Shown here piece after piece: positions 3,227 through 9,071 of a stretch of DNA of 38,561 nucleotides. Under the pieces are notes generated by a model. It made no database searches. It was not told the DNA's origin and was given only the letters and a program-made list of their open reading frames with translations. A program made the translations under genes and the position numbers. Within the stretch, counting starts at the first letter, position 1. Every line of letters begins with the position of its first letter. The DNA is from a phage: sequence record PZ344858.1. One strand, given 5' to 3'.

Positions 3227-3360
3227 TTCAGTCTCCTAAAGTATCCTCCTAAAGTCCATCATCAAGCCAACACCAAAAGAATAACCTTAAAGACCCATCA
3301 AGTCAATCCCTATCTTAAAGATAATCCTAACGACCATCCTAACGACCATCCTAAAGCTGC
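3227..3360. repeat. Left-end array of short CCTAAAG/CTTAAAG-type direct repeats, including tandem atcctaacgacc x2
   Basis: cctaaag at about 3234, 3248 and 3350; atcctaacgacc repeated at 3324-3335 and 3336-3347; related copies also in the right end (about 2608, 2968, 2998) and inside the terminal repeat. Confidence 0.5.
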
Positions 3361-3415: not shown

Positions 3416-3438
3416 TAATTCGACTCACTAAAGGGAGA
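3416..3438 (+). promoter_or_regulatory. T7-RNAP-type promoter at the left end (phiOL-like)
   Basis: taattcgactcactaaagggaga; 21/23 match to consensus TAATACGACTCACTATAGGGAGA; predicted +1 G at 3433. Confidence 0.7.
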
Positions 3439-4680: not shown

Positions 4681-4881
4681 ATGAGTAAACTTCTGGCAAC
4701 CTCCAAAATCAAAGGCCAACACACTGTAACTCTGCGTGAGTACGAGCACGGGAAAATGGGTAGCACCTACGTTGTGCGGTACGGTAAACAAGTCACGCAT
4801 TGGGTGAACGAGGTTCTGGCACAGGAGGAATATCAAGCCTGTGTGATACACCAAGCAACCTGCGCTGGCTGGAATGACTGA
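4681..4881 (+). CDS. Hypothetical early protein (66 aa)
   Basis: ORF MSKLLATSKIKGQHTVTLREYEHGK...CAGWND with RBS agga; flanked by two near-identical RNase III-like hairpins; function unknown. Confidence 0.5.
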   Translation: MSKLLATSKIKGQHTVTLREYEHGKMGSTYVVRYGKQVTHWVNEVLAQEEYQACVIHQATCAGWND

Positions 4882-4903
4882 CAACAGCCTTCAAGTCTAC
4901 CCA

Positions 4904-4954
4904 GTGATAAACTCAAGGTCGCTCCTAGCGAGTGGCCTTTATGATTATCACTTT
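4904..4954 (+). promoter_or_regulatory. RNase III-type processing hairpin (R0.5-like, copy 2)
   Basis: gtgataaactcaaggtcgctcctagcgagtggcctttatgattatcacttt; differs from copy 1 mainly in the loop. Confidence 0.55.
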
Positions 4955-4973
4955 ACGTATGGGAGTAATGTAT

Positions 4974-5102
4974 ATGCTTACTATCGGTCTACTCACCGCT
5001 CTGGGTCTAGCTGTAGGCGCATCCTTTGGGAAGTCCTTGGGTGTAGCTGTAGGCTCTTACTTGGTCGCTTGTATCATTACGGGAGCACTGCGCAAATGCT
5101 GA
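4974..5102 (+). CDS. Small hydrophobic protein (42 aa), putative membrane peptide
   Basis: MLTIGLLTALGLAVGASFGKSLGVAVGSYLVACIITGALRKC; RBS gggag; below the ORF-track cut-off; identity with a T7 gene not established. Confidence 0.4.
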   Translation: MLTIGLLTALGLAVGASFGKSLGVAVGSYLVACIITGALRKC

Positions 5103-5233
5103 AATACTACGTTATGCCCATCCACACCAAGAACGGTGCTACAGTTTGCACACCTGATGGCTTCGCAATGAAACAACGAATCGAACGCCTTAAGCGCGAA
5201 CTGCGCACCAATCGCAAGCTCAACAACATCTAA
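5096..5233 (+). CDS. 0.6: gp0.6-like small protein
   Basis: 45 aa MLKYYVMPIHTKNGATVCTPDGFAMKQRIERLKRELRTNRKLNNI; matches the T7 gp0.6A N-terminus as recalled; start chosen by homology within ORF 4874-5233. Confidence 0.6.
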   Translation: MLKYYVMPIHTKNGATVCTPDGFAMKQRIERLKRELRTNRKLNNI

Positions 5234-5269
5234 ATCTAATTTTCATATTGACACTGGAGAATACACAAA

Positions 5270-6349
5270 GTGAACGCTATCGACATCATGAACGCTATCG
5301 ACGCAATCAAAGCACTGCCAATCTGTGAACTTGATAAGCGTCAAAGTATGCTCATTGATTTACTGGTCGAGATGGTCAACAACGAAACGTGTGACGGTGA
5401 AATCACCAAGCTGGATAAGCCGCTTGAATATCAAGACTGGTGGACTACCTTAAGGTGCCTCACCACTGACGCTGGCTTCACGATGCTCGGTAATGGTCAC
5501 TTCTCCGCTGCATATAGTCACCCACTGCTGCCTAACAGAGTGATTAAGGTGGGCTTTAAGAAAGAGGATTCAGGCGCTGCGTATATCGCATTCTGCCGCA
5601 TGTATCAGGGTCGCGCTGGTATCCCTAACGTCTACGATGTTCAACGCCATGCAGGCTGCTATACGGTGGTTCTTGATGCTCTGAATGAATGTGAGCGAGA
5701 TGATAACTATGAGCACGACAAATACGCTGAGATTGCAAGCGACATCATTGACTGCAACTCTGATATGCACGATTGGCGTGGCGGATGGGTTGGGGAGTTC
5801 GTCGAAACTTGCAAACTAATCCGCAAGTTCTTTGAGGGCATCGCTTCGTTCGACATGCACAGCGGGAACATCATGTTCGACGATAATGACGTACCGTACA
5901 TTACCGACCCGGTGTCATTCTCACAGAAGAAAGACGGTGGCGCTTTCAGCATGGACCCTGAGGAACTCATCAAGGAAGTCGAGGAAGTCGCACGACAGAA
6001 AGAAATTGACCGCGCCAAGGAGCGTAAAGAACGCCATGAGGGGCGCTTAGAAGCTCGCAGAATGAAACGCCGTAACCGTAAGGCTCGCAAAGCACACCGC
6101 GCTAAGCGTGAAAGGATGATTGCTGCGTGGCGCATGGTTGAGCGTAAAGAACGTCGTAACCATGAGGTAGCTGTAGATGTACTAGGAAGGACCAATAACG
6201 CTATGCTCTGGGCGCACATGTTCGCTGGGGACTTTAAGGCGCTTGAGGAACGAATCGCAGCGCACTGGTTCCAAGCTGACCGCATGGCTATCGCTAATGG
6301 TCTTCCGCTAAACATTGATAAGAAACTGGACGCAATGCTAATGGGATGA
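5270..6349 (+). CDS. 0.7: Serine/threonine protein kinase and host-transcription shut-off protein (T7 gp0.7 homolog)
   Basis: 359 aa, GTG start with RBS ggag; strong similarity to T7 gp0.7 including the arginine/lysine-rich C-terminal region. Confidence 0.9.
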
Positions 6350-6419: not shown

Positions 6420-9071
6420 ATGAGCACGATTAACATCGCTAAGAACGATTTCTCTGACATCGAACTGGCTGCTATCCCGTTCAATACTCTGGCTGACCAC
6501 TATGGTGAGCGCCTAGCTCGCGAGCAGTTGGCCCTTGAACATGAGTCTTACGAGATGGGCGAGGCACGTTTCCGCAAGATGTTTGAGCGTCAACTTAAGG
6601 CCGGTGAGGTTGCAGACAATGCGGCTGCTAAACCACTGATTACTACTCTGCTGCCTAAGATGGTTACACGCATCAACGACTGGTTTGAGGAAGTGAAGGC
6701 TAAGCGCGGCAAACGTCCAACCGCTTTCCAGTTCCTGCAAGGAATCAAGCCGGAATCTGTAGCGTATATCACCATCAAGACTACCCTTGCTTGTCTGACG
6801 AGCGTGGACAATACAACCGTTCAGGCTGTAGCAAGCGCCATCGGACGGGCTATCGAGGAAGAAGCTCGCTTCGGTCGAATCCGTGACCTAGAAGCTAAGC
6901 ACTTCAAGAAAAACGTTGAGGAACAACTCAATAAGCGCGTAGGGCATGTCTACAAGAAAGCATTCATGCAAGTAGTCGAGGCCGATATGCTCTCAAAGGG
7001 TCTACTCGGTGGCGAGGCGTGGTCTACATGGCACAAGGAAGACTCCATTCACGTAGGTGTGCGCTGCATTGAGATGCTCATTGAGTCAACCGGAATGGTT
7101 AGCTTGCACCGCCAAAATGCTGGCGTAGTGGGCCAAGACTCTGAGACTATCGAACTGGCACACGAATACGCTGAGGCTATCGCAACACGGGCTGGGGCAC
7201 TGGCGGGTATCTCTCCGATGTATCAGCCTTGCATAGTACCGCCTAAACCTTGGACTGGTGTAACTGGTGGCGGATACTGGGCTAACGGTCGCCGTCCGCT
7301 GGTACTGGTACGCACCCACAGCAAGAAGGCACTGATGCGCTACGAAGATGTTTACATGCCTGAGGTATACAAGGCGATCAACATTGCGCAAAACACCGCT
7401 TGGAAAATCAACAAGAAAGTCCTAGCGGTCGCCAACGTAATCACCAAGTGGAAGCACTGCCCGGTCGAGGACATCCCAGCGATTGAACGTGAAGAACTCC
7501 CGATGAAACCGGAAGACATCGACACGAATCCTGAGGCGCTCACCACTTGGAAACGTGCCGCTGCCGCTGTGTATCGTAAGGACAAGGCCCGTAAGTCTCG
7601 CCGCATAAGCCTTGAGTTCATGCTTGAGCAAGCCAATAAGTTTGCTAACCGTAAGGCCATCTGGTTCCCTTACAACATGGACTGGCGCGGTCGCGTGTAC
7701 GCTGTGTCAATGTTCAATCCGCAAGGTAACGACATGACCAAAGGACTGCTAACACTGGCTAAAGGTAAACCAATCGGCAAGGAAGGATTCTACTGGCTGA
7801 AAATCCACGGGGCAAACTGCGCGGGAGTTGATAAGGTTCCATTCCCTGAGCGCATCAAGTTCATTGAGGACAACCACGATAACATCATGGCGTGCGCTAA
7901 GTCCCCACTGGAGAACACTTGGTGGGCTGAGCAAGATTCTCCGTTCTGCTTCCTCGCGTTCTGCTTTGAGTACGCTGGGGTACAGCACCACGGCCTGAGC
8001 TACAACTGCTCGCTGCCATTGGCTTTCGATGGGTCTTGCTCCGGTATCCAGCACTTCTCCGCGATGCTCCGCGATGAGGTGGGTGGCCGTGCTGTTAACC
8101 TGCTGCCTAGCGAAACCGTTCAGGACATCTACGGGATTGTTGCCAAGAAAGTCAACGAGATTCTGCAAGCTGATGCAATCAACGGTACCGATAACGAAGT
8201 GATTACCGTGACCGATGAGAACACTGGTGAAATCTCTGAGAAAGTCAAGCTGGGCACTAAAGCACTGGCTGGTCAATGGTTGGCCTACGGTGTGACTCGT
8301 AGCGTAACTAAGCGTTCAGTCATGACTCTGGCCTATGGCTCCAAAGAGTTCGGCTTCCGCCAGCAAGTCCTTGAGGACACCATACAGCCAGCTATTGATT
8401 CAGGAAAAGGCCTGATGTTCACGCAACCGAATCAAGCTGCTGGGTATATGGCTAAGCTGATTTGGGAGTCAGTGAGTGTTACCGTAGTGGCTGCTGTAGA
8501 GGCCATGAACTGGCTTAAGTCTGCTGCTAAGCTGCTGGCTGCTGAGGTCAAAGATAAGAAGACTGGTGAGATTCTTCGCAAGCGTTGCGCAGTGTATTGG
8601 GTAACTCCTGATGGCTTCCCTGTGTGGCAAGAATACAAGAAGCCAATTCAGACTCGCTTGAACTTGATGTTCCTCGGTCAGTTCCGCTTACAGCCGACCA
8701 TCAACACCAACAAGGACAGCGAGATTGATGCTCATAAGCAGGAGTCTGGTATCGCTCCTAACTTTGTGCACAGCCAAGACGGTAGCCACCTACGTAAGAC
8801 TGTAGTGTGGGCGCACGAGAAGTACGGAATCGAATCTTTTGCACTGATTCATGACTCCTTCGGGACCATTCCGGCTGATGCTGCCAACCTATTCAAGGCT
8901 GTTCGTGAGACTATGGTTGACACCTACGAGTCCTGCGATGTACTTGCAGACTTCTACAACCAGTTCGCTGACCAGTTACATGAATCTCAACTGGATAAAA
9001 TGCCAGCACTTCCGGCTAAAGGTAACTTGAATTTACGAGACATCTTAGAGTCAGACTTCGCGTTTGCGTAA
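6420..9071 (+). CDS. 1: Single-subunit DNA-directed RNA polymerase (T7 gp1 homolog)
   Basis: 883 aa, the same length as T7 RNAP and near-identical along the whole protein as recalled. Confidence 0.98.
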   Translation: MSTINIAKNDFSDIELAAIPFNTLADHYGERLAREQLALEHESYEMGEARFRKMFERQLKAGEVADNAAAKPLITTLLPKMVTRINDWFEEVKAKRGKRPTAFQFLQGIKPESVAYITIKTTLACLTSVDNTTVQAVASAIGRAIEEEARFGRIRDLEAKHFKKNVEEQLNKRVGHVYKKAFMQVVEADMLSKGLLGGEAWSTWHKEDSIHVGVRCIEMLIESTGMVSLHRQNAGVVGQDSETIELAHEYAEAIATRAGALAGISPMYQPCIVPPKPWTGVTGGGYWANGRRPLVLVRTHSKKALMRYEDVYMPEVYKAINIAQNTAWKINKKVLAVANVITKWKHCPVEDIPAIEREELPMKPEDIDTNPEALTTWKRAAAAVYRKDKARKSRRISLEFMLEQANKFANRKAIWFPYNMDWRGRVYAVSMFNPQGNDMTKGLLTLAKGKPIGKEGFYWLKIHGANCAGVDKVPFPERIKFIEDNHDNIMACAKSPLENTWWAEQDSPFCFLAFCFEYAGVQHHGLSYNCSLPLAFDGSCSGIQHFSAMLRDEVGGRAVNLLPSETVQDIYGIVAKKVNEILQADAINGTDNEVITVTDENTGEISEKVKLGTKALAGQWLAYGVTRSVTKRSVMTLAYGSKEFGFRQQVLEDTIQPAIDSGKGLMFTQPNQAAGYMAKLIWESVSVTVVAAVEAMNWLKSAAKLLAAEVKDKKTGEILRKRCAVYWVTPDGFPVWQEYKKPIQTRLNLMFLGQFRLQPTINTNKDSEIDAHKQESGIAPNFVHSQDGSHLRKTVVWAHEKYGIESFALIHDSFGTIPADAANLFKAVRETMVDTYESCDVLADFYNQFADQLHESQLDKMPALPAKGNLNLRDILESDFAFA

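Follow-up and report, generated by a model that had tools for sequence, protein, structure and literature searches.

Gene 0.7 of phage T7 (UniProt P00513) encodes a seryl-threonyl protein kinase and host shut-off protein of 359 residues and is the described gene with which the present locus is most readily compared. In homologs of the T7 kinase, the tripeptide DPV replaces the kinase DFG motif at T7K residues 213-215 and is considered a hallmark, and recent work shows that the T7 kinase itself acts broadly as an anti-defence effector (PMC13645617). The T7 gene starts with ATG, which is preceded by the Shine-Dalgarno (SD) sequence AAGGA with a 9-nt spacer. Its first twelve codons make up a quasi-repeat of two six-codon units, ATG AAC ATT ACC GAC ATC and ATG AAC GCT ATC GAC GCA, which agree at 12 of 18 positions.

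Templated mutagenesis, in which one repeat is copied onto another, has so far been shown mainly in laboratory T4 and in E. coli reporter systems, and the quasipalindrome correction of Ripley is reportedly related to the form that operates at imperfect direct repeats. For phage T4, this latter form was documented by Schultz and Drake (2008; Genetics 178:661), as their work is cited in PMC8604942.

The window analysed here is the full phage stretch of record PZ344858.1 (38,561 nt), and all positions are given on its single presented strand. Judged from its sequence, the genome is T7-like (Teseptimavirus), and it probably represents an undescribed Teseptimavirus isolate or assembly, because the closest record, Yersinia phage vB_YenP_WW2, is only ~94% identical. 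Compared with T7 it is circularly permuted, with the kinase gene at 5270 and not at ~2021 and with the terminase-side genes ahead of the left-end region. The genes around the start region under study are the following.

5096-5233, plus strand: gene 0.6A-like, 45 aa (alignment with T7 0.6A; phrog_8393; annotations of relatives include this 138-nt gene)
5270-6349, plus strand: gene 0.7, Ser/Thr protein kinase of the T7 type, 359 aa, shut-off domain at the C-terminus (open reading frame; identity to T7 gp0.7; phrog_2828; D213-P214-V215)
6420-9071, plus strand: gene 1, T7-type RNA polymerase, 883 aa (open reading frame; annotated as RNA polymerase in all relatives)

The original prediction had identified the second of these genes as the gp0.7 kinase, and the comparison confirms this assignment. 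The protein shares 87% identity at 100% coverage with the T7 gp0.7 cluster (P0019), and its residues 1-359 match positions 1-366 of the phrog_2828 profile ('serine-threonine kinase') with an E value of 5.7e-169. D213, P214, and V215 are invariant in the alignment that has the window protein as its first sequence. The gene order 0.6A-like, kinase, and RNA polymerase is the same in relatives, and the stop codon of the 0.6A-like gene lies 36 nt upstream of the kinase GTG. By similarity, the DPV motif, and synteny, all three of which agree, the kinase can be classified as T7 gp0.7-type (PF27024/phrog_2828). PF27024 (Phage_T7_kinase) is a precomputed label carried by all homologs; the Pfam copy that was scanned does not contain this family (0 matches). 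A PDB sequence search with the window kinase found no match and thus no solved structure, and a 105-aa N-terminal query in the protein search returned only 6 fragments.

Several side observations concern these neighbouring genes. The mechanical list of open reading frames gives a 119-aa frame at 4874-5233, within which the real gene, to judge from T7 0.6A and from relatives, would be the 45-aa frame at 5096-5233 (phrog_8393). Locus L093 carries a 103-aa version of the 0.6A-like gene, labelled 0.6, with Endonuclease_7 Pfam matches. The kinase frame ends at 864 nt in phiCFP-1 (L008) and at 327 nt in L021, in place of the normal 1080 nt; some natural relatives apparently have a truncated form of this non-essential kinase.

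The 5′ end of the kinase gene reads GTG AAC GCT ATC GAC ATC ATG AAC GCT ATC GAC GCA (5270-5305) and contains a direct repeat. The features of this start region are as follows.

5256-5259, plus strand: SD core GGAG, as read from the window, with 10 nt between it and the GTG
5270-5272, plus strand: putative GTG initiation codon of gene 0.7, at the position homologous to the ATG of T7, T3-like, and KP32-like phages
5270-5287, plus strand: unit 1, codons 1-6, M-N-A-I-D-I, holding repeat copy 1 (TGAACGCTATCGAC, 5271-5284)
5276-5281, plus strand: derived bases GCTATC, codons 3-4 (ATT/ATC ACC in T7, Pila, and 3A_8767; ATT ATC in L093-L095 and L098)
5288-5305, plus strand: unit 2, codons 7-12, M-N-A-I-D-A, holding repeat copy 2 (TGAACGCTATCGAC, 5289-5302)
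5288-5290, plus strand: internal ATG (Met7) in unit 2; codon 7 is ACG, ATT, CAA, or CAG in relatives

The sequence, the two occurrences of a motif 18 nt apart, and the duplicated NAID peptide (MNAIDI and MNAIDA) are all as the original prediction had described them, except that the exact repeat is 14 nt long and not 12. The two units are identical at 14 of 18 positions. TGAACGCTATCGAC occurs exactly twice, with a start-to-start distance of 18 nt, and a pattern search of the whole window found no further copy. The repeat is real and not due to chance, since none of 100 dinucleotide shuffles contained two matches to TGAACGCTATCGAC and only 2 of 200 order-2 Markov genomes contained any direct repeat of at least 14 nt within 40 nt. 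Tandem Repeats Finder does not report the pair, as a two-copy repeat falls below its thresholds.

Exact direct repeats of at least 12 nt spaced within 40 nt number two in the whole window, the TGAACGCTATCGAC pair and a 12-nt tandem at 3324. The latter is a perfect tandem of ATCCTAACGACC (2.6 copies, 3324-3354), lies in non-coding sequence where CCTAAAG-like motifs abound, and resembles the left-end repeat region of T7. It is followed at 3416-3438 by TAATTCGACTCACTAAAGGGAGA, which differs from the T7 promoter consensus by two mismatches and is probably the phiOL equivalent.

How the two units came to be alike was examined with about 100 orthologous loci (given below as L numbers), from which start codons were counted on 52 unique sequences. 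The original prediction had proposed a tandem duplication or a slippage product, and had named comparison with orthologs as its check and a conserved coding stretch with ATG in the orthologs as the outcome that would speak against it. That outcome is largely what the orthologs display; T7 and more than 60 others have ATG at the homologous position, and the stretch is conserved coding sequence. The distance to the LPI motif is 18 codons in the window, T7, T3-like, and KP32-like genes alike, and the codon number before LPI is equal in orthologs at 45-90% identity. There is thus no 18-nt gain, nor a net gain of one repeat unit in the window relative to T7, T3-like, or KP32-like orthologs. The N-termini of the T3-like ortholog (MNYTDIQARLAIIKSLPI, ~53% identity) and of the KP32-like ortholog (MNYTDMQERLDVIRNLPI, ~49% identity) illustrate this constancy of length. 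Because the N-terminal length is conserved, the resemblance between the units would have arisen by substitution in pre-existing coding sequence. An ortholog with a single unit is absent among 94 loci and the best 120 protein clusters. One candidate, the 353-aa 'single-copy' protein P0073, was discarded, as it is annotated from the internal ATG and its DNA has the GTG and both units.

Both units also form graded series of substitutions across the family. Unit 1 passes through NYTD, NITD, NIID, and NAID, and unit 2 through QARLAI, TAALEA, TNALDA, TNAIDA, and MNAIDA, while the identity between units 1 and 2 is 3-6/18 in T3-like and KP32-like genes, 9-12/18 in T7-type genes, 12-13/18 in NIID forms, and 14/18 in the window. 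On this evidence the unit series is read as divergence and convergence by substitution. Even though a duplication would leave an exact direct repeat such as this one of 14 nt, with a period of 18 nt that keeps the frame, it is, in view of these orthologs, extremely improbable that 18 nt were truly duplicated in tandem or inserted by slippage where the gene starts. The slippage idea survives only in a weaker form, a short-patch templated correction of codons 3-4, which is possible but not required. An origin of unit 2 by compensated frameshift was likewise considered, from the T7 ATG AAC GCT ATC and the KP32-like CAA GAA CGC TTA, which have GAACGCT in common one base out of frame; it was rejected because TAALEA, TNALDA, and TNAIDA show gradual substitution.

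The original prediction also took GTG as the start codon, and here the comparison bears it out, in that the GTG is homologous to the ATG of orthologs, has an SD upstream, and is followed by conserved codons 2-6. First, the GTG at 5270 is the first possible start of the 359-aa frame, with an in-frame TGA at 5249-5251. Second, the homologous position is occupied by ATG in 39 and GTG in 13 of the 52 unique sequences. Third, codons 2-6 appear to be translated, because N2 (AAC/AAT; 51 of 52) and D5 (GAC in 34 and GAT in 15; 49 of 52) are conserved with synonymous variation. Fourth, position 1 of the phrog_2828 profile aligns to residue 1 as counted from the GTG. All 13 unique GTG-type sequences have the GGAG core unchanged, while the intergenic bases and length around it vary by indels and substitutions. 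The energy of the SD duplex with the 3′ end of 16S rRNA is -6.4 kcal/mol at the GTG, the corresponding values in orthologs being -5.3 to -6.2 kcal/mol. Positional homology and the SD are observed, and actual initiation at GTG 5270 is what we infer from them.

Public records start this kinase at three different codons, the GTG, the internal Met7 ATG, or an upstream ATG. The GTG is annotated in WW2, CICC 80001, PHB20, PVN09, Pila, and 3A_8767, so that the GTG start is not new to public genomes, and the T7 gene 0.7 start region itself is well known. EG1 (L002) and 64795_ec1 (L012) are annotated from an in-frame ATG that lies 1-3 nt after the GGAG and was made by an ATA to ATG change. Met7 is annotated as the start in four GenBank records, HZ2R8 (L006), ESh6 (L007), phiCFP-1 (L008), and EFA-2 (L097); the last of these is labelled as an Enterococcus phage, yet its genome is T7-like.

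These four annotations, together with the greater strength of ATG as a start codon in comparison with GTG, would favour the ATG at 5288 as the real or a second start, which would make GTG-AAC-GCT-ATC-GAC-ATC an untranslated leader. However, the 20 nt before this ATG pair with the 16S 3′ end at only -1.5 kcal/mol, so that no SD precedes it, and annotators are inconsistent, others having picked the GTG or the upstream ATG. Codon 7 would also be unusable as a start in several relatives, because L096, which is closely related and likewise has the GTG/NAID arrangement, carries ATT there, L024 and L095 carry ACG, and T3-like and KP32-like orthologs carry CAA or CAG. With the synonymous conservation of codons 2-6 and the start of the phrog profile at residue 1 added to these, the internal start is very unlikely. 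The GTG with its 10-nt spacer is a sub-optimal initiation region, and some initiation may occur at Met7; N-terminal sequencing of gp0.7 from T7 or from the window phage was not found in the literature searched. In an AlphaFold2 model, residues 3-14 form one helix with pLDDT of ~86-89 (the model as a whole is of moderate quality, mean pLDDT 67.8), and the first 14 residues are accordingly predicted as a single N-terminal alpha-helix. The N-terminal six residues would thus belong to a predicted kinase-domain helix, which a start at Met7 would halve.

The most probable reading, and one in which we place high confidence, is an ordinary, length-conserved gene 0.7 start with initiation at GTG 5270, whose two units became alike by substitution and without duplication. 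The GTG itself is not confined to one background. L098, a contig from Logan SRR8048112 with the gene at 401, encodes a 60%-identical kinase that starts with GTG behind an ancestral-type AAGGA SD, and its start region reads taaggaacacttaaa GTG AAC ATT ATC GAC ATC ATG AAC GCT ATC GAC. Since this GTG is independent and stands behind AAGGA, ATG and GTG would have been switched at the kinase start more than once, or moved by recombination. A role of the repeat in mRNA structure was rejected; the start-region mRNA is weakly folded in every variant compared, and the initiation region folds at -5.1 kcal/mol in the window and at -5.2 kcal/mol in an in-silico NITD revertant. A regulatory or structural RNA role of the repeat is not indicated.

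The source of the GCTATC in unit 1 was also sought upstream. A third copy of the motif, cTGAACGCTATCtca, lies 40 nt upstream of the gene 0.7 ATG in T7 (record positions 1981-1995), L014, L024, L095, and L106, and could in principle have served as a donor or as a deletion endpoint. Had the old SD been deleted together with the ATG and codons 2-4, this copy would have been fused to codon 5, and the GTG-type start region would have resulted. Such a course would account for the preference of the global T7-window alignment for a pairing with a 40-nt gap, and for the resemblance of the window AATACAC...TGAAC to AATACACTGAAC of L014. Against it, the leader does not bring GCTATC with it, because GTG-NITD genomes with the identical GGAGAATACACAAAGTGAAC leader carry ATTACC. 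The window leader also matches the ancestral-type leader of L098 (TAAGGAACACTTAAA GTG) without gaps at 10 of 15 positions, which speaks for the old initiation region having simply diverged, and microhomology at the junction of such a deletion would amount to just 1 nt. Retention of the third copy through a 40-nt deletion was downgraded once the L098 leader and the shared GTG-NITD leader had been seen, and it is now considered highly unlikely.

The region that holds the third copy has features of its own. An intact 71-aa frame, MENTEGLKRGYMPNGTLYAANRRIVREWRANNLERRKEQERAAWHRRKEKVKAKKLAALEQALANTLKAIS*, lies between 0.6A and 0.7 in the relatives L094 (161-376) and L095 (163-378). Its counterpart in T7 (L003, NC_001604; locus 1592-1809, record 1781-1998) is broken by a 1-nt deletion (CGCAAGG-ACAAGAG). 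The N-terminal 38 codons of the broken frame lie in the 'possible gene 0.6B' frame with a stop at 1972, and the conserved C-terminal part, ...KEKVKAKKLAALEQALANTLNAIS*, lies in another frame with a stop at 1998. The T7 cTGAACGCTATCtca copy encodes the final residues, LNAIS*, of this 71-aa-type frame. T3-like L030 and L032 keep its C-terminus with synonymous changes. The whole region of the 71-aa frame is absent from the window.

In comparison with T7, the window lineage has changed codons 3-4 from ATTACC to GCTATC by three transitions, A7G, T8C, and C11T (I3A and T4I), and the T3-like outgroup (TAC ACC GAC) polarises ACC as ancestral. GCT ATC is found at codons 3-4 in the window, WW2, EG1, CICC 80001, PHB20, HZ2R8, ESh6, phiCFP-1, and PVN09. 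The window-type leader and the GTG are also found in Pila, 3A_8767, 64795_ec1, and others, which still retain ATT/ATC ACC. The partial state ATT ATC (NIID) occurs in several backgrounds, among them L093-L095 and L098. Among the first six codons, 3 and 4 vary most across the family. Sequences with NAID share one local haplotype, marked ~90 nt downstream by ATT GAT vs ATC GAC, and because of this tie a single origin of NAID is suggested. The first 130 nt alone have a local haplotype that follows the NAID state; the gene body is mosaic, and a tree of the body does not sort by start state. Mapping of start states on the kinase-body tree was abandoned as uninformative because of this mosaicism.

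Transitions are the commonest point mutations. Ordinary stepwise point mutation by way of ATT ATC (NIID) is the course to which we lean, because NIID is found in relatives, codons 3-4 are variable, and all the changes are transitions. Intermediates with GTT or ACT at codon 3 (NVID/NTID) were seen neither in the best 120 of 761 homologs nor in the IMG/VR and metagenome scans, in which the pattern RTGAACRYTAYC matched 6 IMG/VR loci and 4 metagenome contigs; an NIID form was not seen within the close GTG-type clade. An earlier argument from missing intermediates to one three-base event was withdrawn after NIID forms appeared in a wider protein search.

It is also possible, though less probable, that codons 3-4 of a GTG-NITD ancestor were copied, all three bases at once, from the unit 18 nt downstream. 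The nascent strand after TGAAC would have misaligned by 18 nt, copied GCTATC, and realigned on GAC. GTG-NITD and GTG-NAID sequences have five fixed differences in ~160 nt, three of which, A7G, T8C, and C11T, fall within 5 nt; these three all yield the bases of unit 2, including its exact Ala and Ile codons, and are flanked by the shared anchors TGAAC and GAC. The clustering of the three exceeds the expectation under a uniform rate, in a statistic that is biased upward because the finding was picked as a repeat. The tie of NAID to one local haplotype is consistent with a single event. Beyond this clade, ACC has changed to ATC in at least three backgrounds, each with ATC in unit 2, and the unit identity climbs stepwise across the family from 3-6/18 to 14/18. 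The mechanism itself has a precedent in T4 (Schultz and Drake, 2008, as cited in PMC8604942).

On the other side, the existence of NIID makes a simultaneous three-base event unnecessary, the three changes are all transitions, and the mosaic gene blurs ancestry. Codons 3-4 are also hypervariable in KP32-like genes, where codon 4 walks through ACC, TCC, TTC, and GCC and unit 2 offers no matching donor. Because of the partial intermediate and the weakly constrained codons, point mutation accounts for the data about equally well. A more general proposal, that short-patch templated mutation between the two direct quasi-repeat units recurs in the kinase gene of the T7 group and homogenises them, is put forward only tentatively and is rather doubtful. 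If it were true, the homogenisation would be a natural, phylogenetically traceable case of templated mutagenesis.

With stepwise point mutation as the favoured course, the locus may be explained as follows. Translation of the 359-residue kinase would begin at GTG 5270, with the ribosomes bound at the GGAG (5256-5259). The repeat would correspond to two adjoining six-codon stretches of a helix (MNAIDI and MNAIDA), which are now nearly identical. Three transitions in codons 3-4, the two least constrained of the first six, would have sharpened a T7-like quasi-repeat of 12/18 into an exact match of 14 nt. The main value of the comparison lies in annotation, where the comparative evidence favours the GTG homologous to the ATG of T7. 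Constructs and proteomic searches would be better based on the full 359-aa form, because the T7 kinase is a broad anti-defence effector. The repeat is at most a small natural illustration of the sharpening of a quasi-repeat.

Among known systems, T7 gene 0.7 resembles the window gene in its 359-aa product, 87% identical over the full length, in the synteny of 0.6A, 0.7, and gene 1, in the equal length of the N-terminus, and in an identical unit 2 (ATG AAC GCT ATC GAC GCA). It differs in starting with ATG and not GTG, in its AAGGA and 9-nt spacer vs GGAG and a 10-nt spacer in the window, and in ATT ACC (I, T) vs GCT ATC (A, I) at codons 3-4; T7 further has ~220 nt between 0.6A and 0.7 (a 'possible gene 0.6B' tail), which are absent from the window. 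WW2 is identical to the window from -50 to +60 of the kinase start. The same or nearly the same GTG, GGAG, and NAID-NAID arrangement occurs in EG1, CICC 80001, PHB20, and HZ2R8 (Escherichia), ESh6 (Shigella), and PVN09 (Edwardsiella), with point differences from the window that give NAIN in EG1, NTID in CICC 80001, and SAID in PHB20. From the templated mutagenesis of T4, the present case differs in that it is read entirely from natural genomes and involves a partial intermediate and weakly constrained codons; it resembles the T4 process in that a clustered multi-base change, bounded by short identical anchors, perfects a nearby imperfect repeat.
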